64,000 bases of DNA from an uncultured virus (IMG/VR IMGVR_UViG_3300027782_003801) (taxonomy: Duplodnaviria > Heunggongvirae > Uroviricota > Caudoviricetes). Position numbers and translations under genes: made by a program. The notes beneath the pieces were generated by a model that saw only the letters and a list, made by a program, of their open reading frames with translations, had not been told where the DNA came from and did no database searches. Positions 35,549-62,862 of the stretch are shown here, in pieces (the first letter of the stretch is position 1; each line of letters opens with the position of its first letter). The stretch lies in the IMG/VR virus record IMGVR_UViG_3300027782_003801, one strand, 5' to 3'.

Positions 35549-36174
35549 CAATGAGATTAATTACATTTGGAGATAGTTGGACGGCAGGACATGGAATTGA
35601 AACTGACGTAAAATATAAAGAAGAACCGTTTCCTCACATGTTCATTCAAAAATTAAGAGATATGAACTCATGGCCAAGATGGGTTTCAGATAAATTAAAA
35701 TGTGAATATGTTAATTTAGGTGTTTGTGGTTATGGTAACGAATATATTTTAAAAGATTTAAAAGAAACGGTTGAAAACGGTTTCATAAACAAAGACGATA
35801 TAGTAATAGTAATGTTATCATATCCATATCGTTATAAATCAAAAGACATTCACAATGTTGTTGAAATATATTTATTAATTGAAGAACTATTACAAGAATA
35901 TAATCATTTTTATTTTAATTCTTTTTATCCATCCTTTAGAGAAGAAGATGTAGATACAAAAAAACTACCTGAGTATTTTATAAATCCAAATGGATGTGTT
36001 TCTGATATATTAAGGGATTATGAAATAAAAAATGATGAAGGTGTTTGGGAATATGGTAGTAGAAGTGTGTGGAACGACGAGAAAAATTTTTATGAGGGGG
36101 ATTATCATCCTAATTTAAAAGGTTATAAAATAATTGGTGATTACATTTACAAGAACATTAAAAAATTTTTATGA
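35545..36174 (+). CDS. SGNH/GDSL hydrolase or acyltransferase
   Basis: FGDSWT, VNLGVCG.GN, DYHPNLKGY; intact catalytic Ser and His. Confidence 0.8.
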   Translation: MTMRLITFGDSWTAGHGIETDVKYKEEPFPHMFIQKLRDMNSWPRWVSDKLKCEYVNLGVCGYGNEYILKDLKETVENGFINKDDIVIVMLSYPYRYKSKDIHNVVEIYLLIEELLQEYNHFYFNSFYPSFREEDVDTKKLPEYFINPNGCVSDILRDYEIKNDEGVWEYGSRSVWNDEKNFYEGDYHPNLKGYKIIGDYIYKNIKKFL

Positions 36175-41033: not shown

Positions 41034-42700
41034 TGTATATAATAGGAATATCAGCTTTTTATCATGACTCCTCTGTATGTTTATTCAGAGATAACCAATT
41101 AATTTTTGCTTGCGAAGAGGAAAAGTTCACAGGTATTAAACACGATGACTCATTTCCAAAAATGGCGTTGGATTATGTTTATAAACACTATAAAATAACA
41201 CCAAAGAATTTACAAGCGGTTTGTTATTATGAGGACCCTCAATTGAAATATCAAAGAGTAATGGAAAATATTAAACCTCAATGGTTTAAGAACCCACTAT
41301 ACTCATTAAAATCTTATTTGAAAATACGTAGTAATGTAAAAGAGATTGATAAGAAATTAAAAGAGATTTGTCCTATCGTATTTTACTCAACACATCATGA
41401 GGCCCATCAGTATTATGCACATTATACGTCTCATTTTGAGGAATCAACTTGTTTATCGGTTGACGGTGTAGGTGAGATTGACACGGTGTCATTGGGTGTT
41501 GCCGATTACAATGGAATCAAATACAGTTCAGTTGCAAAATACCCACATTCAATGGGTCTTTATTACTCCGCATTGACCTCATATTTAGGGTTTAGACCAA
41601 ACGAAGGTGAGTATAAGGTAATGGGATTGGCGTCCTATGGTGACCCTCAAAAGTACATTAAAGAGGTAAGAAATCTTATATCATTCAAATCAGGTAAGTT
41701 AGTGTGTAATATGGATGTATTTTGTTGGAATAAAACCGATAAATCCATGTTTAATGAGAAACTTGCGGAACTATTAAGTGTTCCACAAAGATTACCTGAA
41801 GAAACATTGGTACAAACACATAAAGACTTAGCGGCGGCGGTTCAATTAAGATACGAGGAAGTGTTGTTTGAGATTATGAAATCAATTAAACCCGTTAGTA
41901 AAAGTCCAAATCTAACTTTAAGTGGTGGTTGTGCATATAACGGAACAGCCAATGGTAAGATTATAGATAAAACACATTTTACACATCTTTGGATTCCACC
42001 TGCACCATCTGATGCTGGGTCTGCAATTGGTGCGGTAGTACATTATTTGGTTAGAGAACGTAAAGTAAGAAGTAAAATTACAAGAAATCCATTTTTAGGT
42101 CCCGAATATTATATGGATGACATTAGACGAGCAATTGGTACCTACAACTTTAAAAAGTTTGAATCTGAAAATAAATTAAGAACACATATTGCTCAAAAAT
42201 TATTTGAAGGTAAAGTAGTTGGTTGGTTTCAAGGACATATTGAATTTGGGTCTAGAGCATTAGGTAATAGATCAATATTAGCAAACCCAACCTTACCTAA
42301 TATGAAAGATAGAATTAATAAGGTTATTAAAAAGAGAGAAGGTTTTAGACCCTTTGCACCAATGGTTACCAAAGAGAAACAAGACCAATTTTTTGAAATG
42401 ACAGACGATGTACCATATATGAATCAAGTTGTGAAGGTAAAGGAAAAGTATAGGGATAAACTACCTGCAGTTACTCATGTGGACGGCAGTGCTAGAGTAC
42501 AGACAGTTTACAAATACACTGTCATTCATGATTTATTAAGGGAATTTGAAAAATTAAGTGGTTATCCAATTTTATTGAATACCTCATTCAATGTTAAAGA
42601 TAAGACAATGGTATTAACACCAAAAGACGCTATTGACACTTTCTTTGATACTGATATGGATATATTAGTAATGGGTAATTATGTTATGTATAAAAAATAA
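41033..42700 (+). CDS. O-carbamoyltransferase (NodU/CmcH/TobZ family)
   Basis: HDSS, HHEAH, DGVGE, EYKVMGLASYG, GGCAYN, EFGSRALGNRS, RPFAP, HVDGSARVQTV, LNTSFN. Confidence 0.95.
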   Translation: MYIIGISAFYHDSSVCLFRDNQLIFACEEEKFTGIKHDDSFPKMALDYVYKHYKITPKNLQAVCYYEDPQLKYQRVMENIKPQWFKNPLYSLKSYLKIRSNVKEIDKKLKEICPIVFYSTHHEAHQYYAHYTSHFEESTCLSVDGVGEIDTVSLGVADYNGIKYSSVAKYPHSMGLYYSALTSYLGFRPNEGEYKVMGLASYGDPQKYIKEVRNLISFKSGKLVCNMDVFCWNKTDKSMFNEKLAELLSVPQRLPEETLVQTHKDLAAAVQLRYEEVLFEIMKSIKPVSKSPNLTLSGGCAYNGTANGKIIDKTHFTHLWIPPAPSDAGSAIGAVVHYLVRERKVRSKITRNPFLGPEYYMDDIRRAIGTYNFKKFESENKLRTHIAQKLFEGKVVGWFQGHIEFGSRALGNRSILANPTLPNMKDRINKVIKKREGFRPFAPMVTKEKQDQFFEMTDDVPYMNQVVKVKEKYRDKLPAVTHVDGSARVQTVYKYTVIHDLLREFEKLSGYPILLNTSFNVKDKTMVLTPKDAIDTFFDTDMDILVMGNYVMYKK

Positions 42701-43689: not shown

Positions 43690-43934
43690 TGGTAGAACGT
43701 AAAAGGCACATTGCTAAAACAATTTCATATCGTATTGTAAGTACCCTTATTGGGTTCCTAATAATATGGTGGGTAAGTGGGTCAATCAAGGTTGGAACCG
43801 CATTTGGGGTGGTGGAATTATTCTATAAACCCATCCAATACTACATTCACGAAAGAATTTGGTATAAATGGATAAAATTTGGACTAAAAGAACAAATAAA
43901 TAAAAATGGTAACAGAAATAAAAAACTTCATTAG
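43686..43934 (+). CDS. DUF2061 membrane protein
   Basis: RHIAKTISYRI..T...YYIHERIW. Confidence 0.8.
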   Translation: MMVERKRHIAKTISYRIVSTLIGFLIIWWVSGSIKVGTAFGVVELFYKPIQYYIHERIWYKWIKFGLKEQINKNGNRNKKLH

Positions 43935-44478
43935 TGAAGAAGAAAATCAAATATTAAGAAAATATTTTGATTTAAATAAAATGTGTGATTCCGAAACTAC
44001 AAATGGAACGCCCGGGTTTTTAATAGCGAAATCAAGACATATAAAACCATCCGAAGATATATTCTTACAACAATTATTGGATAAAATGTTATCAGTTGTT
44101 GATAAAAATTGGCAATATGTTGATTATGTAAATTTTACTATATATCCAACCGGCGGGAAATTTAAAACTCATTCTGATTTTTTAGATACTTCATCTTCTT
44201 ATAATATAGAAGAACTTCAATTGGGTGGCCAACGAGATTATACATTCTTATTATATCTAAATGATGATTGTGAAGGCGGTGAAACTAATTTTAGTGTAAT
44301 AAATAAGAAAATAAAATTAGAAAGAAATAAGATGATTTATTGGTCTAATGTTTTACCAGACGGTTCTGCCAATTTTATTACAAAACATGAAAGTAAAATA
44401 GTGACAAATGGCGAAAAATATTTAATTGGAATATGGGCAAGGCATCAAAAGGTGTATACAACTAAAACTTTGTTATAA
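43906..44478 (+). CDS. Prolyl 4-hydroxylase-like 2OG-Fe(II) oxygenase
   Basis: HSD, GGQR..T.LLYLND..EGGET.F, H....V..GEK. Confidence 0.85.
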   Translation: MVTEIKNFISEEENQILRKYFDLNKMCDSETTNGTPGFLIAKSRHIKPSEDIFLQQLLDKMLSVVDKNWQYVDYVNFTIYPTGGKFKTHSDFLDTSSSYNIEELQLGGQRDYTFLLYLNDDCEGGETNFSVINKKIKLERNKMIYWSNVLPDGSANFITKHESKIVTNGEKYLIGIWARHQKVYTTKTLL

Positions 44479-44490
44479 AATTTAACTAAT

Positions 44491-45012
44491 ATGACACAAG
44501 AAATAATTTTTACGAAAGAAGAATGTAAAAAAATAATTGAATTTTATAAAGAAACCGATTATAAAATCTTAAATAATGACGAACCAAGTCAAACTAGAAT
44601 AAAATACAAAGGTTATCAAATCAAATATTCAAATGATTCCGAATTTTTATATAAAAAACTATTTGAATTTTTTGAAAAAAACACTGGTAAAAAAATATAT
44701 ACATATCCGACCGATATCTATATAATGCAATATGATGAAGGTGATTTGTTTTCACAACATACTGATAATATAGATGAGAGAGTATATGTTACAGGAGTAC
44801 AATTAAACGACGATTATGTAGGAGGAGATTATATTTTTTACGAAGAAACGGGATTAAATATTGTTATAAATAAAGAAATTGGTAATTGTTATGTGTGCGG
44901 TGTACATCTATCACATGAAGTAAAAAAAATAACAAAAGGTACTAGATACTCATTGGTCGCATTTATTCGTAAAATCTCACTTACAGATAAAAATAAAAAA
45001 GTATTGATATAA
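44491..45012 (+). CDS. 2OG-Fe(II) oxygenase
   Basis: HTD, LNDDYVGG, HEV..IT.GTRYSLV. Confidence 0.85.
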   Translation: MTQEIIFTKEECKKIIEFYKETDYKILNNDEPSQTRIKYKGYQIKYSNDSEFLYKKLFEFFEKNTGKKIYTYPTDIYIMQYDEGDLFSQHTDNIDERVYVTGVQLNDDYVGGDYIFYEETGLNIVINKEIGNCYVCGVHLSHEVKKITKGTRYSLVAFIRKISLTDKNKKVLI

Positions 45013-45014
45013 AA

Positions 45015-45557
45015 ATGAAAGACATAAAAATGTCAATAACAAAAGACGGAATATACCCAATTGACAAAAAAGGGATGTTTTATGCTAAAAATGACATGTA
45101 TGAATATTATTCGGAAGTTGCGAAAATATTAGGTAATCGTGATATATTAGAAATCGGATATGGAATGGGTATATGTTCCAAAGAAATACAAAAACATAAT
45201 CCTAAATCACATACTATCATAGAAATCAATAAAGACATATTTGAGAGTGGATTAATGTGGTCAAATTCCTTACCAAATGTTAAAATGATATTAGGTAATT
45301 GGTCTGATATTATACCTACCTTAAATCAAAAATATGATGGTATTTTTATAGATACCATTGAGGATGGTAATATTGGTAATTTTGAAAAGATAGCATCAAC
45401 AATAAGTAAAAAAGATACTATATTATCTGTTTTTCATTATGAAAAAATAAATAATAAAAACCTTTACTATAAAAAAATAGATGGCCGTATATTAAATTGG
45501 TCAGTCTATGATGGCATCAAATTTGGAACAGTGATTGATAAATCTAAATTGATTTAA
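45015..45557 (+). CDS. GAMT/Rmt2-like class I SAM methyltransferase
   Basis: ILEIGYGMGI, IQ...PKSHTIIE.N, G.W.DI.PTL...YDGIFIDT. Confidence 0.8.
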   Translation: MKDIKMSITKDGIYPIDKKGMFYAKNDMYEYYSEVAKILGNRDILEIGYGMGICSKEIQKHNPKSHTIIEINKDIFESGLMWSNSLPNVKMILGNWSDIIPTLNQKYDGIFIDTIEDGNIGNFEKIASTISKKDTILSVFHYEKINNKNLYYKKIDGRILNWSVYDGIKFGTVIDKSKLI

Positions 45558-45688
45558 CTGTTAACTGCAGCTAAAATATAACTTCTTAAGTTAGTTAAAA
45601 TCGATTTAACTATCACTATTTTTTCAGGTGAAGTTTGTTTACTTCCTTTATTAATTAATTCGTTGTATGTTATTTTTACTTCTGGCAT
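45554..45688 (-). CDS. 44-aa small protein downstream of the Hint gene
   Basis: MPEVKITYNELINKGSKQTSPEKIVIVKSILTNLRSYILAAVNS; starts 4 nt after the 45693 stop and fills the gap exactly. Confidence 0.55.
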   Translation of the reverse strand: MPEVKITYNELINKGSKQTSPEKIVIVKSILTNLRSYILAAVNS

Positions 45689-45692
45689 AGTG

Positions 45693-47975
45693 TTATTTAT
45701 TATGTACTAAAATGTTATTTGCGTAAAAGTTGTGATTATCTTCAACTGTTACAATATATGTTTGAGTGTCTTCTGGTTTTAAAATTTCAATTTCTTTAAT
45801 TGAGGTGTGACCACCTGTTTCCAAGTTTACCATATCCCCTACTTTAATTTTATAAACTTCTTTGTCAATTTTATATCTTTGGTTAGTCCATTCTGGAATA
45901 AATGACGCTAATCCCAATCCATTAACATAAATCGGATGGTCAAATGTACAAGTTAATGTAGTATCGTTTGAAAAATGATAGGTTACTAAATCATTATGAA
46001 TTGGATTATTTAAACTAATTACTTTTTTAGGTTCAATAATTGATAAAGATTCATTAAACGAAATAACTTCATCACCAATTACTACATCTTCAATATTTTT
46101 AGTGATTCCACTTTCTAACGTAACCTTAGTACCTGCAACAAAACAAGACATTGGTCTATTATGAACCAAAACACCGTCAGCAAAAAAGTTAGCATTATCC
46201 TCAACATCCTTTAATGTAAAAGTCATAATTGAACCATCAATAACCTCAATAGAATTAACAACAGTTTCACCATCAATTGTCTTTACTGAGTCACCAACTT
46301 TCAATTTTACAACACCTATGTTGTATTTTTCAATAGTCATTAAAACATCCAAAGCCGCCCAACCTTCATTTGTCCAAACAGGATGGTCTTTAGTTATTTT
46401 TAATTCAGTTCCATTTTCTAATTTAACTATAGATATATGGTCTGATAATACCGACAATAATTTTCCAACACTTTTATTTTCATTTTCATTTGTAGAAAAA
46501 TTATATGATACAACAATATCACCAGATTGAACATCTTCAATATTTTTTGAAGAACCGTCCGATAAAAGAATTTTAGTTCCTGCTGCAAAACATTCGTAGT
46601 TATGTACAATGATATCTGCTGGTTTTAAAATAACAGTATCACTTTCCTCAACGTCAAATGAGAAATACGAACCCGTATCATATATGACATTTATATCTTG
46701 TACTAATAATCCATTTCCAGTCGATGTTATAACCCTATCACCAGGTGCAATTGTAGTGGCTGAAATAAATTGAACGGTATCATTATTACTTTGCCAAGTT
46801 AAAATGCCAGAACCAAATAAAGAATTATATTTAATACTACCTTCTAATGTAAGTTCTACCGCGAAATCATCCAATTGAACTGAATCAATCTGAACAACCG
46901 ATGACGTTGTTTCATATTTATTTAATAAATCATATTCTGTTTTAGTTTGTTTCCATTCAAACCAGTTATATGTATTAACTGCAGCATCGGGTAGAGACGT
47001 AACTATATATGATTTAACAACATCACCGACTACCACATCTTTTAATTGTTTAGTAGTATTATCTACCAATTCAACTAATGAATCTTCTCTATATCCATGT
47101 TGTTTAGGACCATCATGAGATGTTAAGAAATTAGAGATATATGAATATCTCCATTTTTTATCAACATAACTACCACTAACACTAAAATCAGCTTCAGCTG
47201 GAAGTGATGTTAATGTTGAAGAATCAAGAAATGCTAAATCAATCGCATCTAAATTAGACCCATACCATAATTGATATACTCTAATTGATTGTATTTTATT
47301 GTTATATAAACTATCGGTTTCATTATAATGATAGTTTTCAACTACATATGTATCTAATATGGTGGGATCAGAATTTAATAAATTATCAATTGTTGTGTCA
47401 TTTTGTAACTTAACTAATTTATTATTTATATATGGTGAAAAAACAGATTTCTTTAAGAAATAATCAGGAATATTTGATTGTGTATTTTTATCTCTACTTA
47501 AATTGTCAAACTCAGTTAAATCACTTCTTTTAAATTTAAGATTTGGAATTGAAGAGGTGTCCCCGTTATTAATAAATAAATCGTAAAGATTAATTTCATT
47601 GGCACAATATTCCGAATCTACAATTGCGGTGGAATCATAAACAGATCTTATGATAAATGTTGTTTCATTATCAACAACATCTGAAGGAATACCATAAAAA
47701 GTATCAAATACCTTTACAAATTCCAATGTAATCCCACTAACAGATTGGTCACCATCCCAATTATTTTGCAAATAAGTTACAAAATCTCGTAAAGTGTTGT
47801 TGTATACAAATACCAATTTTGTGTATCCATTTCCCAATAAATGAGACTTCAAATTTGAAAGATCAAAATATGGTAATTGGGAGGGAAGAATTCCTGTGTT
47901 GGTGTTTATTTCTAATAGTCTTAGATTTCCATTAGAGTCGTGTACAAAATCAGCTGATATTAAGATACTTTTCAT
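45693..47975 (-). CDS. Permuted ATP-grasp-like domain fused to three tandem Hint domains
   Basis: N-terminal ADF..D.NG.LRLLEINTN; Hint units GYRED...IIVHN, CFAAGT..T.DHP..VLVHN, CFVAGT..T.DHP..ILVHNK. Confidence 0.8.
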   Translation of the reverse strand: MKSILISADFVHDSNGNLRLLEINTNTGILPSQLPYFDLSNLKSHLLGNGYTKLVFVYNNTLRDFVTYLQNNWDGDQSVSGITLEFVKVFDTFYGIPSDVVDNETTFIIRSVYDSTAIVDSEYCANEINLYDLFINNGDTSSIPNLKFKRSDLTEFDNLSRDKNTQSNIPDYFLKKSVFSPYINNKLVKLQNDTTIDNLLNSDPTILDTYVVENYHYNETDSLYNNKIQSIRVYQLWYGSNLDAIDLAFLDSSTLTSLPAEADFSVSGSYVDKKWRYSYISNFLTSHDGPKQHGYREDSLVELVDNTTKQLKDVVVGDVVKSYIVTSLPDAAVNTYNWFEWKQTKTEYDLLNKYETTSSVVQIDSVQLDDFAVELTLEGSIKYNSLFGSGILTWQSNNDTVQFISATTIAPGDRVITSTGNGLLVQDINVIYDTGSYFSFDVEESDTVILKPADIIVHNYECFAAGTKILLSDGSSKNIEDVQSGDIVVSYNFSTNENENKSVGKLLSVLSDHISIVKLENGTELKITKDHPVWTNEGWAALDVLMTIEKYNIGVVKLKVGDSVKTIDGETVVNSIEVIDGSIMTFTLKDVEDNANFFADGVLVHNRPMSCFVAGTKVTLESGITKNIEDVVIGDEVISFNESLSIIEPKKVISLNNPIHNDLVTYHFSNDTTLTCTFDHPIYVNGLGLASFIPEWTNQRYKIDKEVYKIKVGDMVNLETGGHTSIKEIEILKPEDTQTYIVTVEDNHNFYANNILVHNK

Positions 47976-48185
47976 ATTTTTTTAATTAATTTACTTTTTC
48001 TTTTAATTAAGTTAAATTTAAACTTAATATTTGTAATTATATAGTATAAATATATAAAAAAACAATTAAATTAAATAATGTCACATATATCTTATAGTAT
48101 AAGTACATAAAAAATAATTAAATTGATGATTATATATATATATCTATATATAATAAAAAAATATAATATAAAAATCGATAATATA

Positions 48186-48872
48186 ATGTTTTGTTTTTGT
48201 TTTCTTGCATATGGTGAAGAACATATTAATGAATTTAATATTGTAGCAAAATCAATTTTAAAATTAAATACGAATTTTAAAATAATAGTCGGTACGGATA
48301 ATACGGATGCAATTATAAGTGGTGTACATAGTATTATTCAAATAAATGAAGGATTTAACTATAATTTAAAAAGATTGGTAATTGAACACGCCTTTAAAGA
48401 ATTTAATACAATATTGTTTTTAGATACCGACATTTTCATTAAAAATGGTATAGACTTTTCTGTATTATATGAACTAAATGAGGGTATGTATGTGGGGGAA
48501 ATAGTAGGATTAAATAGATTAAAAGATGTTTATGGGTCACTTGAATATATGAGAGAATATTTGAACGAGTTAACCAACATATACCCGAACGAATTTTTTT
48601 TAGTACATGAAGGGATATTTGTTTTAGAATTAAAAAATAATAAACAAAAAGAAGATTTTATAAAATATTGGAAAGAAATTGACACTCAAACAAGACCCTA
48701 TCAAAAGTTAGCGTATGATTTACCTGGCGCAATGGAGGGAATAATAATATGGATTGCAATACAAAAAGCTAATATTAAACTTACGTTAATGGAAGGAAAA
48801 ATTGAAAAATTATTTAGAAATATACGTCATTTTGGGAAAAGAAATTGTAAATTGGAAAGAACATTAATTTAA
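48186..48872 (+). CDS. Putative GT-A fold transferase (paralogue of 11230)
   Basis: IVGTD, FNYNLKR, ILFLDTD, EG..I.IA; start moved to the ATG at 48186. Confidence 0.55.
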   Translation: MFCFCFLAYGEEHINEFNIVAKSILKLNTNFKIIVGTDNTDAIISGVHSIIQINEGFNYNLKRLVIEHAFKEFNTILFLDTDIFIKNGIDFSVLYELNEGMYVGEIVGLNRLKDVYGSLEYMREYLNELTNIYPNEFFLVHEGIFVLELKNNKQKEDFIKYWKEIDTQTRPYQKLAYDLPGAMEGIIIWIAIQKANIKLTLMEGKIEKLFRNIRHFGKRNCKLERTLI

Positions 48873-48877
48873 TTAAT

Positions 48878-49372
48878 ATGGAAAAAGTTTTGTTTACTAA
48901 AGAAGAATGTGAAACAATTTTAGAATATACAAAAGAAAAAGAAGGGTTACCCTCCAACCCATCTTATAAAAAATCAGATTATTTAGCTTGGTATATCTAT
49001 CGAGATGAAAAAACAGAATGGATATTCCAAAGAATATTTAAATATTTAAAGGATTTTGTAAGTCTAAACAAAGAATTAGATGTGTTGTTTTTACAAAGTG
49101 TTAAAATAGGAAATAAATTTGAAAGGCACGTAGATGTTAGTAATTATTTTAATGTGGGAGTTTCTTTAAACGATGATTATGAAGGTGGTGAATTGTATGT
49201 AGAAGATTCAAACTATGTGATAGAAAAAAAACAAGGTAATATTTATTTTTTTGAAGGATTTAAACCTCACGGAATATCCGAAGTTATTACTGGACAGAGA
49301 TTTACTATAGTTGGTTTTTTTAAGATTGGAGATTTGAATTTTAATAAAACATTTGATTCTAAATTAATTTAA
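48878..49372 (+). CDS. 2OG-Fe(II) oxygenase
   Basis: HVD, LNDDYEGGEL, PHGI..V..GQRFTIV. Confidence 0.85.
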   Translation: MEKVLFTKEECETILEYTKEKEGLPSNPSYKKSDYLAWYIYRDEKTEWIFQRIFKYLKDFVSLNKELDVLFLQSVKIGNKFERHVDVSNYFNVGVSLNDDYEGGELYVEDSNYVIEKKQGNIYFFEGFKPHGISEVITGQRFTIVGFFKIGDLNFNKTFDSKLI

Positions 49373-49375
49373 TAA

Positions 49376-49885
49376 ATGAATGAAATAAAGAAAAATATAC
49401 TAACCGATAGTGATATTGATTTAATACAAAATTGTTATAGAAACGGAATCGAAAATAATGGCGATGGTATTAATAATACTTTCAAAATGAATATGTTTAG
49501 TAGAATAACATGTACAGGAAAAGAAATATTTTTTTGTGATTTAAAAAATGAAAATTTATTGCAAATTGTTAAAAAATATATATTATTAGAAAAAAATGAA
49601 TTTATTGATTCGATACATCATATAACATATGGAATTGGTGAATATACATTACCACATTATGACGCACACCCAAATAATACATTTTCAAGTAAAACATATT
49701 TATTTTTATTATCTGATACATTTGAAGGGGGCGGATTGTTTTTAAACAAAACTCTTGTTGAATTTAACAAATCTGATATAATTGTATTTGATGCATCGGT
49801 TTTACATGAAGTAAAACCCATAAAAACCGGATTAAGGGAAGTTTTAGTTATTTGGGTTAGGAAAAATAAAAAAAACATATTATAG
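49376..49885 (+). CDS. 2OG-Fe(II) oxygenase
   Basis: PHYD, L..TFEGGGL, LHEVKPI..G.REVLV. Confidence 0.85.
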   Translation: MNEIKKNILTDSDIDLIQNCYRNGIENNGDGINNTFKMNMFSRITCTGKEIFFCDLKNENLLQIVKKYILLEKNEFIDSIHHITYGIGEYTLPHYDAHPNNTFSSKTYLFLLSDTFEGGGLFLNKTLVEFNKSDIIVFDASVLHEVKPIKTGLREVLVIWVRKNKKNIL

Positions 49886-49887
49886 AT

Positions 49888-50403
49888 ATGGATTCCATTA
49901 TACAATATAAAATCACAAAAGATATGTTTATTAAAATTAAACATAAAGATTGTTACAAATTAAAATATGTCGATTTAAATAATTACGTTGATTATGTTGA
50001 TGATTTTAAAATTATAATTGATTTACTAGATAGACAATTAAAATGGGACGGTATTCCGACATTAGAACAATGTTATAAAAGATTTATTTCAAATTCATTT
50101 TGTTTATTATTTTATTATAATAACAAATGTATTGGGTGGAATTGGGGAAATCAAAATGTAACAAAAAATTGGATTGATATTGATAAAACTTTAGATAAAA
50201 ATGAATTATATTTGGGTGGTTGTTTTGTTTCTAAATTAGTTGAAAGGCCGTCAGACGCTGGAATTCAAAACTATAACATGTTTTTTGATTATTGTTTGAA
50301 TGTATTAAACCCAAACACAATGTACGGATATTGTGATAGTTGGAATAAAGCGGCAATACGAATAAACTTAAGTAATGGGTGGAAAAATTTTAATCTAATA
50401 TGA
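49888..50403 (+). CDS. GNAT-like acyltransferase
   Basis: IGWNW, YLGGCFVS, Y.D.WN.AAIR....NGW resemble GNAT motifs A/B. Confidence 0.5.
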   Translation: MDSIIQYKITKDMFIKIKHKDCYKLKYVDLNNYVDYVDDFKIIIDLLDRQLKWDGIPTLEQCYKRFISNSFCLLFYYNNKCIGWNWGNQNVTKNWIDIDKTLDKNELYLGGCFVSKLVERPSDAGIQNYNMFFDYCLNVLNPNTMYGYCDSWNKAAIRINLSNGWKNFNLI

Positions 50404-51242
50404 AACACTTAACTAACGATATTTTAAAATGTAGAAATAATTTAGACGAATTAAATTTTGAAAAAAATAATACCTATTCCTTTATACCGTGCGATAGTGA
50501 AGAACTTTTTAATAAAAATTTAGAAAGAGAGAATAGAAATTATAGCCTATTGTATTATTTAAAAAATCCGATAAAATATAGTTTAAATAACGAAGGATTT
50601 AGAACACCTGATGATTTTAATTCGGAAGATGAAGGTAATGTTTATTTAGGGTGTTCACATACTTTTGGGATTGGTCATCATTTAGAAAATACATGGTCAT
50701 ATAAGTTAAATCAACAGATTGGTGGAAAATTTTGGAATTTATCAGTCGGAGGAACTGGTGTGGCAACACATTTTAGATTATTATTTGGGTATTATAAAGA
50801 ATTAAAAATTAAAAATATATTTCATTATGCTCCAAAATACCCTAGATATGAATTTATTATAAATAAAACACCTATAAATTTTATAATTTCAAATTATAAC
50901 AAAAATTGGTTAAATCAATTCGGAGATTTAATGGAAACTTGTCTATTAACAGATGAACAATGTGAATATAATTGGATAACATATACGAATGCCATTAGAG
51001 GTATTGCTTCAGAAATTGGATGTAATTATTATTTAATTGACGGATGTGATAAATGGGACGGAAGAAATGACAAATCATTATTGGCTAGAGATATTATACA
51101 TCACACTACATTACTTCAACACATGGTGTTTAAAGATTTTCTAAAAATGTATAACCCAAAAATGATAGATAATATTGAAAACGACTTATCGGTTTTTGAT
51201 ATAGAAAAATTTTTTAGTTCAGATAAAAAAACATTACTATAG
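50400..51242 (+). CDS. SGNH-like protein
   Basis: Y.LN..GFR, LGCSHTFG, WNLSVGG, ARD..H. Confidence 0.65.
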   Translation: MKHLTNDILKCRNNLDELNFEKNNTYSFIPCDSEELFNKNLERENRNYSLLYYLKNPIKYSLNNEGFRTPDDFNSEDEGNVYLGCSHTFGIGHHLENTWSYKLNQQIGGKFWNLSVGGTGVATHFRLLFGYYKELKIKNIFHYAPKYPRYEFIINKTPINFIISNYNKNWLNQFGDLMETCLLTDEQCEYNWITYTNAIRGIASEIGCNYYLIDGCDKWDGRNDKSLLARDIIHHTTLLQHMVFKDFLKMYNPKMIDNIENDLSVFDIEKFFSSDKKTLL

Positions 51243-52388
51243 AATTTTTTTAATTTGATTAGAATCGAGAAATTTCAAAAATGACGGTTTCTTTTTATTA
51301 ATGAATAAATTATGATTGTGAATTAAGATGTCTTCCATTTCATTTAACATAATACATAACTCATCATCTGTTTTATTACATATGAAGTTAAGAATGCCGA
51401 TTATTTTATTTACTCTTAATAAATTATTTTTTTCATCGTCATAACTTTCATCCCACCACCTGTCAAATGTTTTATAACCCATTTCTTTTAATTTTTTCAA
51501 TGAATAGGGACTACCAAATATAATAAAAGGTTGACACGTGTAAATTGGTTTGAATGTTTTTTCGGTTAGAAAAACAATGTCTTTATTTATTATTGATTCA
51601 GTTACCAAATATAAAAATGTTTTTTTTATAATATTAACATCTAAAACCGAACCTAAATTCTTTGATTTATCAAAATCATCAAACGACCATGAAGTTTTGT
51701 TGTTAATAAAAAAATCATTTATTAATTTATTCTTTTTATTATCTATATTAAATTCTATTTTATAATTAAAATATTTTTGATTATTTTGTAAACTAATATA
51801 TGAATTATTAAAAACCTCATTATTATGAAATATTTCGTAAAAAATATATTTTCTTTGACTTCTAGATATTCTATTATAACAAATTATTTTTTTTTCAAAG
51901 AATTTTTTGTTTCTATTTATCTCGATAAAAAAATCTAATGTAATATTTTCACTAAATTTATTAATGAAGGTGGGAACATCTTCAAATAGACAGTAAGGTA
52001 TAAATTCACAATTAACATAGTCATATTTTTTTTTAACATTTAAATCTCCCGTTAAAACCTTAAAATTATTATAATTAAAATTATATTTTTTTATAAGATA
52101 ATTTATAAAAATTAAAAAAAAACCATCCGTTGGACCCGAACATTCATCCGAAGCATTTAAAATAACAACACATTTTTTTTTAATAATTAAATTAATTATT
52201 GATTCGTCAATTAGAATATCATCATATAAAAATTCGTTTTCTTTATTGGATGATAATACTAAATTAATTACATAATAAAAATTTAAATCACTATCGATTA
52301 TTTCGGTAAGTTCCTTTTTATTTAAGAAGGCCGAATCGATTGAAAACCCTTTTTGGTTATTAGGTATGTAAAAAAACATTTTATCCAT
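51237..52388 (-). CDS. GT10-like family protein, paralogue 7
   Basis: YNRISRSQR; LVTES..FLTEKTFKPI..QPFIIFG..LKEMGYKTFDRWWDESYD. Confidence 0.6.
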   Translation of the reverse strand: MDKMFFYIPNNQKGFSIDSAFLNKKELTEIIDSDLNFYYVINLVLSSNKENEFLYDDILIDESIINLIIKKKCVVILNASDECSGPTDGFFLIFINYLIKKYNFNYNNFKVLTGDLNVKKKYDYVNCEFIPYCLFEDVPTFINKFSENITLDFFIEINRNKKFFEKKIICYNRISRSQRKYIFYEIFHNNEVFNNSYISLQNNQKYFNYKIEFNIDNKKNKLINDFFINNKTSWSFDDFDKSKNLGSVLDVNIIKKTFLYLVTESIINKDIVFLTEKTFKPIYTCQPFIIFGSPYSLKKLKEMGYKTFDRWWDESYDDEKNNLLRVNKIIGILNFICNKTDDELCIMLNEMEDILIHNHNLFINKKKPSFLKFLDSNQIKKIL

Positions 52389-52440
52389 AATATTAAATAT
52401 TTACTTTAAATTTTAGCTTATTTTCATTATATTATGTGTA

Positions 52441-55437
52441 ATGAAAATACTTGCACATACATGTTTTATTGGAGTAACAGGATACGCTAACCACGCGAAG
52501 TCCTTTTTTTGTGCTCTGAACAAATACCACACAGTTAAAGTTAGAAACTCAACCATAGGTAGTGGTTGGAAGGGAATGAATAACACACCTCACGATGATG
52601 AACCTTACATCACTGATGAGATGAAAGATATGTTAATCTTACAAACCCTTATCAATAGTGACGGTAGCAGATCTCACTTACCAATATACGGTTATAAGAA
52701 TGACTTTAAACCTGACGTTCATATTGTATTGGTTGATATGAACAACTATTATTTCCACGAGAATTATGAGGGTTACAAGATAGCATTTAATGTATGGGAA
52801 TCCACAAGATATCCACAAGATTTTTTTAAGAGATTAATGTACTTTGATGAGGTATGGGTACCGACACAATGGCAGTTTGATTGTTTGGTTGAACAAGGGT
52901 ATCCAAAATCTAAAATATCAGTAGTTCCAGAGGGAGTTGACGTGGAAACATTTAAACCGTTAAATAAGACACCAAAGAAGGATAAATTTAGATTCTTACA
53001 CTTTGGTAGATGGGATTATAGAAAAGGAACAACAGAGGTTTTAAGGACATTTGGTGAGGTTTTTAAAGGTAGAACTGATGTTGAGTTAATTGCGTCAGTT
53101 GAAAACCCATACGCGTACGATGGGTTGAAAACAACAGAAGATAGGGTTAAATTCCACAACATCAACGATGAGAATATAAAGTTTATTAAGTTCACACCGA
53201 GAGAAGAATATGTGAAGTATCTACAAGAGGGTGATTCATTTGTTACCTGTGCTCGTAGTGAAGGATGGAACTTACCATTGATTGAGGCTATGGCTTGTGG
53301 AACACCATCAATTTACTCTAATTGGGGAGGTCAATTAGAATTCGCTGAAGGTAATGGTATTCCCGTTAAGATAGATGGTTTAAGACCTGCGAATGTGGAA
53401 CATAAAAATTTTCCCGGTGAATATTGTGAACCAGATTGGAAAGATTTGGGAAAACAAATGTTAAATGTGGTTGAAAAATATAAAAATAATAAATTAATAG
53501 CATTACAAGAATCCAAACAAATCCACGAGGATTTCAATTGGGATAAAATAGCAAAAACAGCATCAGAAATATTAATGGAAAAGAAAACAATTAGAGAAGA
53601 TGATTTTTATAAATCAGAAAAATTCTACACCGATGTAGATGTGTTAGAAAACTTAGGTGATATTAAAGATTACCAAGGAGGAACCATTGAGGTTGCGAAT
53701 AAGTTTGGTTGGCCAAGAGCTATTTACCATGAAATTTTTAATTTAAAAGATTATTATAAGTTTCCTAACCAAGATAAAAGAATTTATGACGGAGATGTAG
53801 TAGTAGATTTGGGTGGAAACATCGGAATATTCAATAGATGGGCGTATAGTCAAGGTGCGTCTAAAGTAATATCATTCGAACCCGATAGGAGATACTTTGA
53901 ATTACTATCAAAAAATGCTGACCCTCGTTCAATTTTATTTAACGGTGCAGTTGCCGATGAGGTAGGTGAAATGATATTATCGGAAACAGGACATCTTGGT
54001 GGATCAACATTACTTGAAACAAAAGAAGTAACAAACACATATACAGTTAAAACATATACATTAGATTATTTGTTTGAAACGGGTGTGGTAAATAAAATTG
54101 ATTTTTTAAAAATAGATATTGAAGGTGCGGAACATCACGCATTTGTGGGTATATCCGACGAGAATTTGTTAAAAGTTAGAAACGTGGCGATGGAATATCA
54201 CCATAACCTATTAGGACATAATGTGGAATTAAGAGAAAGTTTAATTCAAAGAATGACAAAATTAGGATTCTCAAATTACACACTATATATGGGAGAACAT
54301 GAGAACTTACAAATGTTATATTTTGAAAGGAAGGTTTCATCAAATAGAAAATCCGTTATACATTTTGTTGACGGACCATTTGTTGAAATCAACGAAGATG
54401 CTCAACACCAATATAACGTTCAATTTATTAATGGAGACAATGGTAAAATAGTTTATGAAACTAATATCAAGAGTAATCATTGGACAAGAGCATCTAAAAA
54501 ATACTATGTTAATTGGATTGTTAAGATTAAAGGTATTGATAATGATTTTTATAGAGAGGAGAAATTTAATCCTGAAGGTCAAAGAATTATGATATGTTTT
54601 GAATCTAAATCTTTGGGAGATAGTTTAGCTTGGATGCCGTATGTTGAAGAGTTTAGAATTAAAAACAAGTGTCATGTTGTATGTTCAACATTTAAAAATG
54701 ATTTATTTAAAGGACAATATTCCGAAATTGAATTTGTTGAACCAGGAACAGGAGTTAATAATTTATATGGATTATATAGATTAGGGTTATTTTACGATGA
54801 TAATAGAACAATAAGATATGAAAATCACCCGACTAACCCTAAAGTGGAACCATTGGGTAAAATGGCTACCGATATATTAGGATTAGAATATGAAGAGATT
54901 AGACCTAAATTACCAACTTTTAGTGATAAGAAAAAGAAGAGAGTGTGTATAGCGGTTCATTCGACCTCACAATGTAAGTATTGGAATAATCGTACAGGAT
55001 GGCAACAAGTAGTAAATCACCTTAAAAGAAAAGGTTATGAGGTAAGATTGTTATCAAGAGAAGAGGACGGATATATGGGTAATAAGAACCCACAAGGAGT
55101 GGTACAACAAAAATCAGGACCGATTGAGAAGGTAATTCAGGTATTAGAAGAATCTGAATTGTTTATTGGTATTGGTAGTGGTTTAAGTTGGTTGGCATGG
55201 TCTGTGGGTATTCCTTGTGTTATTATTTCAGGTTTTAGTGAGGAATATAGTGAACCAACAATAGGAGTTTCAAGAATTATTAATAAGGATGTTTGTCATG
55301 GATGTTGGAATGTTTATGATTTTAACCCTGGTGATTGGAACTGGTGCCCTGTAAATAAAGGTACACCACAACAGTTTGAGTGTTCAAAATCGATAACGGG
55401 TGAAGATGTAATAAAAGAAATTGATAAATTAATATAA
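52441..55437 (+). CDS. Tri-domain GT4 + FkbM methyltransferase + Aah/TibC-like protein O-heptosyltransferase
   Basis: RSEGWNLPLIEAMACG (GT4); DLGGNIG, FEP, LKIDIEGAE (FkbM); SLGDSLAW, KYWNN..GWQ, GSGLSWLAW, CHGCWN..WCP..FEC (TibC family). Confidence 0.85.
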   Translation: MKILAHTCFIGVTGYANHAKSFFCALNKYHTVKVRNSTIGSGWKGMNNTPHDDEPYITDEMKDMLILQTLINSDGSRSHLPIYGYKNDFKPDVHIVLVDMNNYYFHENYEGYKIAFNVWESTRYPQDFFKRLMYFDEVWVPTQWQFDCLVEQGYPKSKISVVPEGVDVETFKPLNKTPKKDKFRFLHFGRWDYRKGTTEVLRTFGEVFKGRTDVELIASVENPYAYDGLKTTEDRVKFHNINDENIKFIKFTPREEYVKYLQEGDSFVTCARSEGWNLPLIEAMACGTPSIYSNWGGQLEFAEGNGIPVKIDGLRPANVEHKNFPGEYCEPDWKDLGKQMLNVVEKYKNNKLIALQESKQIHEDFNWDKIAKTASEILMEKKTIREDDFYKSEKFYTDVDVLENLGDIKDYQGGTIEVANKFGWPRAIYHEIFNLKDYYKFPNQDKRIYDGDVVVDLGGNIGIFNRWAYSQGASKVISFEPDRRYFELLSKNADPRSILFNGAVADEVGEMILSETGHLGGSTLLETKEVTNTYTVKTYTLDYLFETGVVNKIDFLKIDIEGAEHHAFVGISDENLLKVRNVAMEYHHNLLGHNVELRESLIQRMTKLGFSNYTLYMGEHENLQMLYFERKVSSNRKSVIHFVDGPFVEINEDAQHQYNVQFINGDNGKIVYETNIKSNHWTRASKKYYVNWIVKIKGIDNDFYREEKFNPEGQRIMICFESKSLGDSLAWMPYVEEFRIKNKCHVVCSTFKNDLFKGQYSEIEFVEPGTGVNNLYGLYRLGLFYDDNRTIRYENHPTNPKVEPLGKMATDILGLEYEEIRPKLPTFSDKKKKRVCIAVHSTSQCKYWNNRTGWQQVVNHLKRKGYEVRLLSREEDGYMGNKNPQGVVQQKSGPIEKVIQVLEESELFIGIGSGLSWLAWSVGIPCVIISGFSEEYSEPTIGVSRIINKDVCHGCWNVYDFNPGDWNWCPVNKGTPQQFECSKSITGEDVIKEIDKLI

Positions 55438-55503: not shown

Positions 55504-57564
55504 ATGAAAATATTTGACGCAAACATCTCGGGATCACTAAACGTATCGGGCGCAGCTCGTTTCTTTGGAGATCTTACGGTAGACGGAACAATAAACGCCA
55601 CCATCAGTGGTACAACCTCAAACGCCTTAACCTTAAACACAACAGGTTCAGCTCGTTTTGCAACCACAGGTAGTAACCTATTCACCGCAAATCAGACAAT
55701 TAGTGGATCAATAATCCCCGCTGTTAACAACACTTACGATTTAGGTAGTCCAACACATTGGTGGAAGGATATCTACGTATCAACAGGATCCATCTTTATT
55801 GGTGGAATTAAAGCTATCAGTACAAACTCTGATGGTACAATACAAGTAGGTGCTCAAGTTGTACAAACTTCAGCGAGTTTGGCTTCAGTAGGTCTTGCAG
55901 TTCCCGCAACAGGTTCAGCTGGATCAAGTCAAATAGTAGGTAGTCAATCTATTACAGGTAGTCAATCCATCACAGGTAGTTTGACAGTTAGTGGTAGTTT
56001 AGGTGTGACTGGTTCATTGTTCATTAATGGAACATCATATACTGCGGCTTCTTCAGGTACAAGTGGTTCATCAGGTTCTAACGGAACCAACGGTTCTTCA
56101 GGAACTAGTGGTTCTAACGGAACCAACGGTTCATCAGGTTCTTCAGGAACTAGTGGTTCTAACGGAACCAACGGTTCATCAGGTTCTTCAGGAACTAGTG
56201 GTTCTAACGGAACAAACGGTTCTTCAGGAACTTCAGGTTCTAACGGAACAAACGGTTCATCAGGTTCATCAGGTTCTAATGGAACAAATGGTTCATCAGG
56301 TTCTAATGGAACAAATGGTTCATCAGGTTCTAATGGAACAAATGGTTCATCAGGTTCTAATGGAACAAATGGTTCTTCAGGGTCTAGCGGATCTAACGGA
56401 ACAAACGGTTCTTCAGGAACTTCAGGTTCTAATGGAACAAATGGTTCTTCAGGGTCTAGTGGTTCTAACGGAACCAACGGTTCTTCAGGAACTTCAATAA
56501 CAACATCAGGTACTAACAATAAAGTAGTTAAATTTACTTCTGCATCAACTGTGGGCGACTCATCAATAACTGATGACGGAACAACAGTTACTATTAATGC
56601 TAATTTAATGGTATCAGGTACAACTACAACAATCAATTCAACAACACTTGCAATTGGTGATAATATAATTGAACTTAATGGTTCAGGTGCTGTAAATGGT
56701 GGTATAGTTGTTAGAGACGCAACCGCAGCATCATTAGTATCAGGTTCGTTATTATGGAATACAACTACTGATAAGTGGATAGCGGGTCCTTTAGGGTCTG
56801 AGATTGAAATTGATACTATTAGTGGAACACAAACACTTACAAACAAAACAATTAGTGGTGGTTCAAATACTTTAACTAACATTGCAAATGGTTCATTAAC
56901 TAACTCATCTGTAACTGTAACCGCAGGAACGGGTATGAGTGGTGGTGGAGCGGTTGCTTTAGGTTCATCGGTAACATTAACCAACGCGGGTGTAACTTCA
57001 TTAACTACAAATACAGGTTTAAGTTCAAACGTAAGTGCAACAGGTGCGGTTACGGTTACAAACGCAGGTGTAACATCAAACGTAGCAGGTACGGGTGTAT
57101 CGGTAAGTGCAGGTACAGGAGCGGTAACAATCTCAATCGGTCAAGCGGTGGCAACTGGTTCTACCGTACAATTTGCTAACGTAGGTATAACAACAGGTTT
57201 AGGTGTGGGAACAGCAGCACCTGCAACTGTAGGTTTGATTAGAGCAACAAATGACGTTATCGCATATTATGTTTCAGATGAAAGATTAAAAGAGAATTTT
57301 GAAAACATTACAAATCCTTTAGAAAAGTTAAAACAAATCAACGGTTATACATATGATTGGATTCCAATGGTTGGAGTTCACGAAAATGAAGGTCATGATG
57401 TAGGTGTTAAAGCTCAAGAAATTGAAGCGGTTTTACCTGAGATTGTAACAACAAGAGAAAATGGTTATAAAGCCGTTAAATACGATAGATTGGTTGCTTT
57501 GTTAATTGAAACAAACAAAGAGTTATTAAATCGTATTGAAGCTTTAGAAGAGAAAATTAAATAA
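55504..57564 (+). CDS. Tail fibre with Gly-X-Y tract and C-terminal peptidase S74 intramolecular chaperone
   Basis: SDERLKEN..., GVKAQEIEAVLPEIV, YDRLVALLIE..L..RIEALE. Confidence 0.9.
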   Translation: MKIFDANISGSLNVSGAARFFGDLTVDGTINATISGTTSNALTLNTTGSARFATTGSNLFTANQTISGSIIPAVNNTYDLGSPTHWWKDIYVSTGSIFIGGIKAISTNSDGTIQVGAQVVQTSASLASVGLAVPATGSAGSSQIVGSQSITGSQSITGSLTVSGSLGVTGSLFINGTSYTAASSGTSGSSGSNGTNGSSGTSGSNGTNGSSGSSGTSGSNGTNGSSGSSGTSGSNGTNGSSGTSGSNGTNGSSGSSGSNGTNGSSGSNGTNGSSGSNGTNGSSGSNGTNGSSGSSGSNGTNGSSGTSGSNGTNGSSGSSGSNGTNGSSGTSITTSGTNNKVVKFTSASTVGDSSITDDGTTVTINANLMVSGTTTTINSTTLAIGDNIIELNGSGAVNGGIVVRDATAASLVSGSLLWNTTTDKWIAGPLGSEIEIDTISGTQTLTNKTISGGSNTLTNIANGSLTNSSVTVTAGTGMSGGGAVALGSSVTLTNAGVTSLTTNTGLSSNVSATGAVTVTNAGVTSNVAGTGVSVSAGTGAVTISIGQAVATGSTVQFANVGITTGLGVGTAAPATVGLIRATNDVIAYYVSDERLKENFENITNPLEKLKQINGYTYDWIPMVGVHENEGHDVGVKAQEIEAVLPEIVTTRENGYKAVKYDRLVALLIETNKELLNRIEALEEKIK
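56263..56370 (+). repeat. Four perfect tandem copies of a 27-nt unit within the fibre repeat
   Basis: GGTTCATCAGGTTCTAATGGAACAAAT x4, encoding GSSGSNGTN. Confidence 0.9.
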
Positions 57565-57902: not shown

Positions 57903-58346
57903 ATGAAATTACATTATAAGAAATCCCCCTCCAAATACGAATTACAATACGTTAAATGGAATGGTATTAATTTTGATAGGGACAAACTCATTAAGTTTGT
58001 TAAACGTCTTAATTTAACTTATCTATTGTCATTTATACCGCATTACAGACAGGAATATCAAATACTTAATGAAATATATGATTCATACGATAAAGTTCGT
58101 ATGGATGGTTTATTAAATAACGATGAGAACATATTAAGGATGTGTTTTATTGAAAAATGGGCGAGAATTGCTGCGGTGGATATCCTTCTTACAAATGTGT
58201 ACTCAAGATTAACTTTCACAACAATTAGTAATTTACCAATTAAAGATTACCAACTTCTAATGAAAAGGGTTGAAGAAATGGTTGATACTGGTAGAAAAAC
58301 AACATATCAAAGTAATAAAATAACAGATAACATACCAGGTCAATGA
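57903..58346 (+). CDS. Hypothetical protein
   Basis: Clean ORF preceded by TATATTAT; coupled to the next gene. Confidence 0.6.
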   Translation: MKLHYKKSPSKYELQYVKWNGINFDRDKLIKFVKRLNLTYLLSFIPHYRQEYQILNEIYDSYDKVRMDGLLNNDENILRMCFIEKWARIAAVDILLTNVYSRLTFTTISNLPIKDYQLLMKRVEEMVDTGRKTTYQSNKITDNIPGQ

Positions 58347-58990: not shown

Positions 58991-58991
58991 G

Positions 58992-60092: not shown

Positions 60093-60111
60093 TTTTTTAT
60101 TTTAATTTAAA

Positions 60112-61104: not shown

Positions 61105-61144
61105 ATTCTTTTAATTATCTACGTAAAGAGATTTATTCATTCTT

Positions 61145-61993: not shown

Positions 61994-61996
61994 ATG

Positions 61997-62791: not shown

Positions 62792-62862
62792 TATAATAAA
62801 TTTTTTATTATTTCATTTCCGTTATAATTTGCTGTTACAAATACGGTATTAGTTTCTTCCAT
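62791..62862 (-). pseudogene. 23-codon mini-ORF coupled to both neighbours (probable collapsed gene)
   Basis: MEETNTVFVTANYNGNEIIKNLL; starts inside the upstream gene end; stop overlaps the next ATG (TAATG). Confidence 0.45.

Follow-up and report, generated by a model that had tools for sequence, protein, structure and literature searches.

What does a phage protein do that carries a ligase domain at one end and a row of intein-like domains at the other? The question arises from an open reading frame (ORF) of 760 amino acids at positions 45693-47975, on the minus strand, of a 64,000-nucleotide stretch of DNA (hereafter the window) from an uncultured virus of the Caudoviricetes (IMG/VR record IMGVR_UViG_3300027782_003801). 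A model that saw the sequence and its ORFs had read it as a permuted ATP-grasp-like protein with three tandem Hint domains that releases or conjugates tiny peptides or itself (hereafter the original prediction). The layout that it gave proved exact: a ligase domain (residues 1-290; 47106-47975) is followed by a degenerate Hint domain, Hint1 (residues 294-459, from G294 to H458-N459; 46599-47096), the spacer Tyr460-Glu461 (YE; 46593-46598), an intact bacterial intein-like (BIL-like) module of mini-intein size, Hint2 (residues 462-606, from C462 to H605-N606; 46158-46592), the spacer Arg-Pro-Met-Ser (RPMS, residues 607-610; 46146-46157), an intact module resembling A-type BIL domains, Hint3 (residues 611-759, from C611 to H758-N759; 45699-46145), and a single lysine, K760 (45696-45698), before the stop codon. 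As also claimed, none of the residues that follow the Hint domains (Y460, R607 and K760) is Cys, Ser or Thr. Fold, profile and structure matches agree with the reading as a permuted ATP-grasp domain with three tandem Hint domains of graded competence, and we consider these domain identities highly probable. Regarding function, we favour, at an even chance, the reading that the protein is a phage peptide-carboxylate ligase that acts with a partner peptide, that Hint1 sheds the tail and that the intact modules are exchangeable, self-removing cassettes.

The ligase domain was assigned from its predicted fold. An exhaustive HMMER search with residues 1-293 against representative proteins (50% identity clustering) recovered 226 relatives at E <= 1e-3 and 128 at E <= 1e-10, and among the matches listed the alignment begins at residue 1-2 of the protein in 148 of 150 relatives. 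The AlphaFold2 model of the domain, built on 148 aligned sequences, is confident (predicted local distance difference test score, pLDDT, 93.4; predicted template modelling score 0.89), and Foldseek ranked YgiC (7uk8; E 4.4e-7, probability 1.00) first in the PDB, the other top matches being YjfC, the yeast, human and plant glutathione synthetases, GspS and trypanothione synthetase (probability ~1.0, E to ~1e-4), at template modelling (TM) scores of 0.37-0.45. A comparison with VIA, which is independent of Foldseek, gave Z scores of 9.5 for 5oet, 8.6 for YgiC (7uka), 8.5 for GspS (2io7) and 7.5 for the E-64 ligase Cp1B. The check that the original prediction had proposed, a fold comparison of residues 1-290 with GspS and permuted ATP-grasps, thus yielded a confident model, which aligns from its first residue with YgiC, GspS and glutathione synthetases.

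The same comparison speaks to the circular permutation. Permuted enzymes align with the model over 203-228 residues, from residue 1-2 to ~285 (Z 8.1-9.5), whereas classical ATP-grasps (ArgX/LysX, RimK, TTLL and Ddl; Z 4.3-6.4) align only from residue ~50, the matches to 3vpb, 5k2m, 4iwx, 3r23 and TTLL starting at ~50-52 of the model and at residue 1 of their own chains. The first 50 residues hold the predicted D...E-x-N motif (residues 9-24, within S-A-D-F...L-L-E-I-N-T), which lies in the two strands of an N-terminal beta-hairpin (residues 3-12 and 18-24). Since this D9/E22/N24 hairpin corresponds to the piece at the C-terminal end of classical enzymes, the permutation claim holds. In 100 diverse relatives D9, E22, T25 and D120 are invariant and N24, R110, Y113, K175 and R232 are conserved in at least 90%, D114 also being among the conserved residues of the domain; this conservation argues for an active enzyme. 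Permuted ATP-grasps are curated under the names GSP_synth, CP_ATPgrasp_1/2 and GSH_synth_ATP; because the domain shares the fold common to permuted ATP-grasps and has no sequence match to a curated family, we regard it as a family of its own. A search of BFVD found no structural relative of the domain below E 0.01, and an Atlas search returned leads only (0.85-0.90). According to one report (PMC12568646), YgiC and YjfC are peptidylpolyamine synthetases, and ATP-grasp enzymes phosphorylate a carboxylate to an acyl phosphate, which is then condensed with an amine.

The Hint assignments could be made from both sequence and structure. The full-length model (pLDDT 90.2) places three regions that all superpose on solved Hint folds. 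Pfam profiles match residues 462-606 and 611-759 (AXH 1.7e-22, Hint 5.2e-15, Intein_splicing 2.9e-14 and PT-HINT 3.3e-9, in addition to Vint and Hom_end_hint), and both modules carry the catalytic residues of the fold: Cys1, T-K-D-H, the terminal H-N and a +1 Arg in Hint2, and Cys1, T677..H680, H758-N759 and the +1 residue Lys760 in Hint3. In VIA, Hint2 (model residues 462-608) aligned with the Ssp DnaB mini-intein (Z 19.9, root-mean-square deviation [rmsd] 1.4, 132 aligned residues, 23% identity) and Hint3 (model residues 610-760) with Tetrahymena BIL2, 6y75 (Z 23.6, rmsd 1.5, 143 aligned residues, 27% identity). By profile, the nearest solved relatives among the matches listed are BIL2 (1.7e-25) and the Clostridium thermocellum BIL domain 2lwy (7e-24), the latter also being matched by Hint3 in phmmer (2.8e-6), and the DnaB, RecA and gp41-1 inteins reach structural Z scores of 18-20. 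The Hedgehog folds 1at0 and 6tyy score 18.2-18.6; in Hog domains the Cys1 thioester is resolved by an adjunct sterol-recognition region and the terminal Asn is dispensable. The modules described here have no extra C-terminal region and keep the terminal His-Asn.

These features recur throughout the family. Among 187 canonical modules, Cys1 is present in all 187, the Thr and His of TxxH in 185 and 186, the penultimate His in 178 and the terminal Asn in 179, and the +1 residue is Lys in 111, Arg in 53, and Thr or Ser in 3. The modules of the window protein measure 145-149 amino acids and contain no homing endonuclease domain. A-type BIL domains are said to be Hint domains of mini-intein size with Cys1, His-Asn, variable flanks and no conserved +1 nucleophile, and fold, size, Cys1, His-Asn, variable flanks and the missing endonuclease all place the modules in this class.

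Hint1, which the original prediction had called degenerate and devoid of an N-terminal Cys, has Gly (G294) at the Cys1 position, lacks TxxH and carries an insert of ~25 amino acids, and is nonetheless a genuine Hint homologue. Its profile aligns with that of the canonical modules over 136 columns (hhalign probability 98.6%, E 7.3e-16), and the model superposes on the C. thermocellum BIL domain 2lwy (model residues 291-459; Z 19.7, rmsd 1.4, 136 aligned residues, 17% identity) and on the Hedgehog autoprocessing domain 6tyy (model residues 294-460; Z 18.2, rmsd 2.1, 137 aligned residues, 16% identity). In 100 sequences H458-N459 is invariant and the acidic residues E443 and D446, in a block-F-like position, are conserved in at least 90%. 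Judged by these residues, Hint1 is a Hint fold that has lost the thioester-forming half of the chemistry and kept the Asn-cyclisation half. It is fused to the ligase domain in every family member.

Everything that follows Hint1 is variable. Across 196 near-complete family members, intact modules number zero in 73, one in 62, two in 58 and three in 3, a count in which the canonical-module profile does not include a third, divergent Hint-like module that starts with Cys and ends in ...SGLGDN..LN.KYKRQ....HL instead of His-Asn (loci L001, L010, L011, L029 and L030; proteins P0070, P0084, P0094, P0097, P0103 and P0116). After the His-Asn of Hint1, 133 of the 196 have short tails or linkers only, 43 have Cys-rich segments (at least 4 Cys in at most 90 amino acids) there or between Hint modules, and 16 have longer extensions. 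In 33 of the 73 members without intact modules there is neither cargo nor intact Hint but a short tail, and HN is kept. The Cys-rich segments (P0039, P0066, P0067, P0111, P0131, P0053 and P0038, among others) in several cases resemble C-x2-C...C-x4-C-x3-C-x2-C, and would, from their position in the sequence, be freed by flanking Hint cuts. A long Cys-rich stretch in P0158, P0173, P0202 and P0214 is followed by a region that by eye resembles the endosialidase-chaperone domain (Peptidase_S74) of a fibre protein encoded at 55504-57564 of the window.

The spacers between Hint domains vary as well. YE is constant in all 25 proteins of the close clade of the window protein (P0001-P0025, including the truncated P0020, whose tail starts with YE), and in the same clade the second spacer reads RPMS, RPMV, RPMVA, RPMISS, RPMIGS, RPMIGI, RPMIGV, RPKY or RPIY. 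In the family as a whole, spacers have anywhere between 0 and 61 residues, 20 being empty and 68 being dipeptides of many kinds. Because they vary in length and sequence, YE and RPMS are best regarded as linkers. The comparison of copy number and spacers in homologues that the original prediction had suggested thus found zero to three intact modules and did not bear out the tiny spacers as defined products.

Comparison of the modules with one another points to exchange. Hint3 of the window shares 78% identity with the single Hint module of P0068, a protein whose core is 31% identical to the window core, and 66% and 64% with modules on two other distant cores (29% and 25% identical); for Hint2 nothing exceeds 43% identity outside the close clade. 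Within a single protein, identity between modules does not exceed 52%, which is too low for arrays built by recent tandem duplication, and this explanation was dropped. From these identities, Hint3 at least looks to have been exchanged laterally between distant versions of the gene. The C-terminal residue is Lys in 106 of the 196 members and Lys occurs within the last three residues in 152; on one reading, new cassettes join the chain at a terminal ...HN-K or ahead of it, whereby the same end is restored.

A second gene accompanies the ligase. A tiny ORF of 44 amino acids (45554-45688, minus strand), which the original prediction overlooked, starts 5 nt after the ligase stop codon. In relatives, all 81 loci compared have an ORF of 37-53 amino acids directly downstream of the family gene (57 distinct sequences), at a distance of -1 to 31 nt in 79 of them, with the consensus ..YK...R....L....K..V..I...F..Y.K.KH[SL]; its penultimate His is kept in 51 of the 57 distinct sequences.

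The genes around this pair share a C-terminal tag. All ten large ORFs that flank the ligase and partner genes (43906-55437) end in two hydrophobic residues, and the consensus across related loci is approximately K-K-[KTSN]-[LI]-[IL]-COOH, or roughly K-K-x-[LI]-[LI]. Hydrophobic-pair ends are found in 728 of 1736 ORFs of at least 80 amino acids within 10 kb of a family gene, and [LI][LI] ends in 17 of 232 ORFs of one whole relative genome. In agreement with the claim that the gene sits among tagged enzymes, the tagged fraction is highest beside the family gene: in 59 de-duplicated loci it is 0.63, 0.56, 0.51, 0.56 and 0.53 for the first five downstream genes and 0.44 for the first upstream gene, and by a distance of 9-12 genes it has dropped to 0.07-0.15. 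Neither the codons for the two terminal residues nor the stop codons are constant; the constraint therefore acts at the protein level, and a DNA-level motif was ruled out on these grounds. Locus by locus, the two terminal tag residues show no co-variation (0.215 versus 0.207 in shuffles), and Lys occupies position -4 in about half of the hydrophobic-pair tags listed (266 of 541). Small 2-oxoglutarate (2OG)-Fe(II) oxygenases, with an intact HxD...H triad, are tagged in 182 of 185 cases and a radical SAM/SPASM cluster, named by its representative's match, in 59 of 63; other tagged clusters match, likewise by their representatives, SET, HAD/NT5C, methyltransferase-like and GDSL-like proteins. That one tag is present on dozens of unrelated enzymes suggests a signal, for addressing or for substrate recognition, in phage-infected cells.

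From the observed folds, motifs, conservation, gene linkage, tag and cassette exchange we infer autoprocessing, ligase activity and a substrate as follows. After translation, Hint1 would cut behind N459 and everything downstream would be shed. Hint2 and Hint3 would each cut both of their own ends, through the Cys1 thioester and cyclisation of the terminal Asn, ordinary splicing being presumably blocked because only Arg or Lys follows; they would be accessory, as relatives carry zero to three of them and Hint3 at least appears to have been exchanged, and YE and RPMS would act as linkers. The mature product would be a ligase-Hint1 core of ~459 residues. We consider such autoprocessing likely. 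By analogy with its structural relatives, the core may activate a peptide by phosphorylating its terminal carboxylate, so that this can be joined to an amine, and the likeliest substrate would be the 44-residue partner peptide encoded 5 nt downstream, serving as scaffold or carrier; this last assignment is tentative. The K-K-x-[LI]-[LI]-tagged oxygenases, methyltransferases and glycosyltransferases would belong to the same pathway.

Could the intact Hints instead be working parts of the system? They might be single-use, ATP-independent dispensers of thioesters, like Tetrahymena BIL2: the bond before Cys1 would become a thioester, the upstream polypeptide (the ligase core, or something that the ligase has joined to a freed N-terminus) would pass to a lysine amine, either the module's own +1 Lys or lysines of the K-K-x-L-I tags, and Asn cyclisation would free the spent module. 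Lysine deserves attention here, since the original prediction had argued that modules without a +1 nucleophile cleave rather than splice: Cys, Ser and Thr are indeed absent, but the exclusion of Lys needs nuance, as BIL2 is reported (PMC8616854) to form an isopeptide bond to the amine of a lysine and so to pass on its upstream domain without ATP. That Hint3 is closest to BIL2, of the BUBL1 locus, by both structure and profile fits this proposal, as do the near-perfect conservation of catalytic residues in all modules, the prevalence of Lys and Arg at +1 (111 and 53 of 187) and the Lys at -4 in about half of the tags. The 73 of 196 members that lack an intact module, 33 of them with a short tail only, imply in turn that the core system works without thioester chemistry; Arg at +1 is no such amine nucleophile, and copy number and type that vary among close relatives, together with lateral exchange, are typical of accessory or selfish elements. 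We hold working thioester dispensers to be rather unlikely. Quite unlikely, in our estimate, is that the protein exists for the release of cargo through Hint1, in the manner in which PT-HINT domains free toxin tips, with the window copy, in which Hint modules are the sole cargo, being degenerate or parasitised. The invariant His-Asn of Hint1, the Cys-rich segments and longer extensions (43 and 16 of 196) and the Pfam PT-HINT matches of the modules would all suit such a role, but 133 of 196 members carry short tails or linkers only, the 33 members with neither cargo nor intact Hint still keep HN, and the conserved ATP-grasp active-site residues, the partner peptide and the tagged island would be left unexplained.

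The original prediction itself, that the ligase-Hint protein exists to release or conjugate the inter-Hint peptides YE, RPMS and K, appears very unlikely. An Asn that can cyclise upstream and a Cys1 thioester downstream are both available to free such peptides, and YE is constant in the close clade, but the second spacer changes in length and sequence within that same clade and spacers of 0-61 residues across the family frame no conserved peptide. That Hint2 and Hint3 are ordinary inteins splicing an interrupted host protein is scarcely credible: size, Cys1, TxxH, the terminal HN and the similarity to the DnaB, RecA and gp41-1 inteins are those of mini-inteins (Hint1 shares with them the fold and the terminal His-Asn only), but an intein has a +1 nucleophile and a ligated C-extein, whereas here RPMS and then a lone Lys follow, the +1 residues are Arg and Lys, and no homing endonuclease is present in modules of this length. 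With Lys or Arg at +1 and no C-extein, Hint2 and Hint3 are not inteins in a working sense, and relatives without modules stop directly behind Hint1, which leaves no host sequence to be interrupted.

Several observations weigh against the reading that we favour, a peptide ligase with a partner peptide, a tail-shedding Hint1 and self-removing cassettes. On residues 1-460 Pfam yields nothing at E <= 1 but a chance hit to MukF_C (0.067), phmmer with residues 1-293 finds no solved ATP-grasp at E <= 10, and none is present among the 60 matches listed of the 80 in the family profile search, so the ATP-grasp assignment depends on a predicted fold with TM-scores of 0.37-0.45; D9, E22 and N24, which we take to be the Mg-binding triad of the GspS type, are so named from the motif and from alignment ranges. 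Selection for downstream Cys1, TxxH and HN is hard to see if Hint1 sheds the tail in every case, and yet the catalytic residues of the downstream modules are almost perfectly kept, which argues that module chemistry matters; nor does a purely neutral linker model predict Lys or Arg at +1 in 164 of 187 modules. The partner peptide of the window ends in VNS rather than K-x-K-H-[SL] and thus diverges at the conserved C-terminus. The tag is linked to the ligase through neighbourhood alone, and the complete relative genome G005 has three oxygenase homologues (41174-41656, 86959-87474 and 118241-118741, all on the minus strand): two good matches, which carry the tag, one of them at a distance of 40 kb from the ligase gene, and a weak one, which does not. 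A complex prediction for core residues 1-461 with the tagged oxygenase encoded at 44491-45012 gave scores of 0.31 and 0.12, with the mark at 0.32, and weighs neither way.

A further possibility would unite ligase, partner peptide, Hint thioester modules and tags in one phage protein-tagging system. The ATP-grasp domain would activate the C-terminal carboxylate of the partner peptide or of a tagged enzyme, the activated carboxylate would be joined to an amine freed by Hint cleavage, and the next Hint would convert the new bond to a thioester, to be passed to lysines of target proteins. We regard this as improbable. If true, it would amount to a ubiquitin-like conjugation built from an ATP-grasp and consumable intein-like domains, without E1, E2 and E3, and would tether or mark a whole set of tailoring enzymes.

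The tagged genes of the window lie on both sides of the ligase-partner pair. On one side, three tagged genes on the plus strand (43906-45557) encode two 2OG-Fe(II) oxygenases and a methyltransferase-like protein, the tagged ends being TKTLL, KKVLI and KSKLI. On the other, seven tagged genes (48123-55437) encode a GT8-like protein, two 2OG oxygenases, three proteins of no known family (one on the minus strand) and a GT4/FkbM-methyltransferase/GT9 protein of 998 amino acids, with the ends ERTLI, DSKLI, KKNIL, NFNLI, KKTLL, IKKIL and IDKLI. Two more tagged ORFs are located at 26983-28179 (minus strand) and 35545-36174. For the oxygenase of the window, the matches in cyanophages and Xanthomonas phages are all distant and partial. 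Farther out, an extensive sugar-nucleotide and glycosylation island (11230-43689 and 57903-63772) holds several epimerases/dehydratases, a DegT aminotransferase, a carbamoyltransferase, UDP-glucose dehydrogenase-like genes, GT2, GT7 and GT8, and two radical SAM proteins (16579-18675 and 19416-20864). Fibre-like collagen-repeat proteins of 645, 1312 and 686 amino acids are encoded at 78-11205 and 55504-57564, the one of 686 having the endosialidase-chaperone domain, and C1q-like, Laminin_G_3 and Gly_rich_2 proteins are also found. These proteins are possible targets of the many prolyl/lysyl-hydroxylase-like oxygenases and the glycosyltransferases of the window.

The orientation of the pair is unusual for the family. 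The original prediction had the gene transcribed against its neighbours, and both neighbouring genes do lie on the other strand, the ligase and partner ORF being inverted together as a unit; this does not extend to relatives, whose ligase genes are co-oriented with their neighbours in the de-duplicated loci (same strand in 56 of 57 cases at position -1 and 57 of 59 at +1). The TATTTAT element that it placed upstream exists, as the reverse complement of TATAAATA at 48045-48052 on the plus strand, but with 15 copies of the octamer in the window, where chance predicts 21.6, it is not enriched and carries no weight. In this position TATAAATA faces the plus-strand gene at 48123, and we take it to resemble the T4 late-promoter consensus. 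A promoter and terminator scan and an inverted-repeat search around the inverted two-gene module found nothing above chance.

Which viruses carry the family? Relatives occur in 245 IMG/VR contigs. The T4-type Gp23 capsid gene was found in five of five related records (213-326 kb) and the capsid gene of nucleocytoplasmic large DNA viruses (NCLDV) in none of the five, and an origin in a giant eukaryotic virus was rejected on that basis. Window DNA is present in sequencing runs labelled freshwater or lake metagenome. No relative of the N-terminal domain was found in cultured phages (INPHARED, tblastn), where the matches were Hint-only, to helicase inteins of Vibrio and Dickeya phages, and a first scan of viral contigs with the protein alone as query found nothing. 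Three RNA libraries, each from a different study, yielded contigs that match parts of 45506-47953 at 100% identity, and one of these contigs spans 45506-45733, across the junction of ligase and partner, which does not imply a single transcript. As the RNA runs were picked with this stretch, missing cover of flanking genes carries no meaning, and as DNA may be carried over into RNA libraries, we take these contigs as a weak hint that the ligase-partner region is expressed.

With 226 clusters and 245 viral contigs, the family represents a widespread phage function and not a curiosity. Its zero to three modules, exchanged cassettes and Cys-rich tails make it a natural experiment on how intein-like domains are recruited or tolerated at a C-terminus, and the tag marks families as diverse as oxygenases, radical SAM/SPASM proteins, SET, methyltransferase, glycosyltransferase and HAD proteins.

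How, then, does the locus compare with known systems? YgiC/YjfC, the synthetase domain of GspS and eukaryotic glutathione synthetase have the same permuted ATP-grasp fold, with the D...E-x-N hairpin first, but they measure 370-600 amino acids as opposed to ~290 for the family domain and share no detectable sequence similarity with it (Pfam, phmmer); in contrast to them, the family domain is fused to Hint, is encoded in viral contigs (T4-like in the five records tested) and is accompanied by a gene for a peptide of ~45 amino acids. LysW with the ATP-grasps LysX/ArgX, and the PEARL scaffold peptides, resemble the locus in logic only: in these systems a small peptide is combined with a ligase that acts on its C-terminus and with tailoring enzymes around, and here a small peptide gene likewise stands beside a ligase and tailoring enzymes. 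The family ligase is of the permuted type, whereas LysX/ArgX are weaker fold matches (Z 5.5-6.2), and the partner peptide is presumably no homologue of LysW.

On the Hint side, A-type BIL domains (2lwy; BIL2, 6y75/6tmm, of Tetrahymena BUBL1) share with the modules the Hint fold, Cys1, TxxH and His-Asn, and both do without a homing endonuclease or an obligatory Cys, Ser or Thr at +1. BUBL proteins reportedly place BIL domains in tandem with small domains between them, whereas the family modules are separated in the window protein by linkers of 2-4 residues with no ubiquitin-like domain between; unlike those of BIL systems, the family modules hang on an enzyme, and in the first of them the N-terminal chemistry is lost. 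The PT-HINT domains found in polymorphic toxins, which presumably release the piece downstream of them, likewise sit just upstream of a variable C-terminal piece, but the window protein has no toxin tip, secretion or Rhs/filamentous context, and more Hint modules follow. Full-text literature searches for the architecture found no description of a fusion of an ATP-grasp ligase with Hint, and we found none of the tag, at which no literature search was aimed. Both building blocks are known; the fusion of the ligase with a Hint predicted to cut at its C-terminal side only, accompanied by a constant gene for a tiny peptide, appears to be an undescribed combination.

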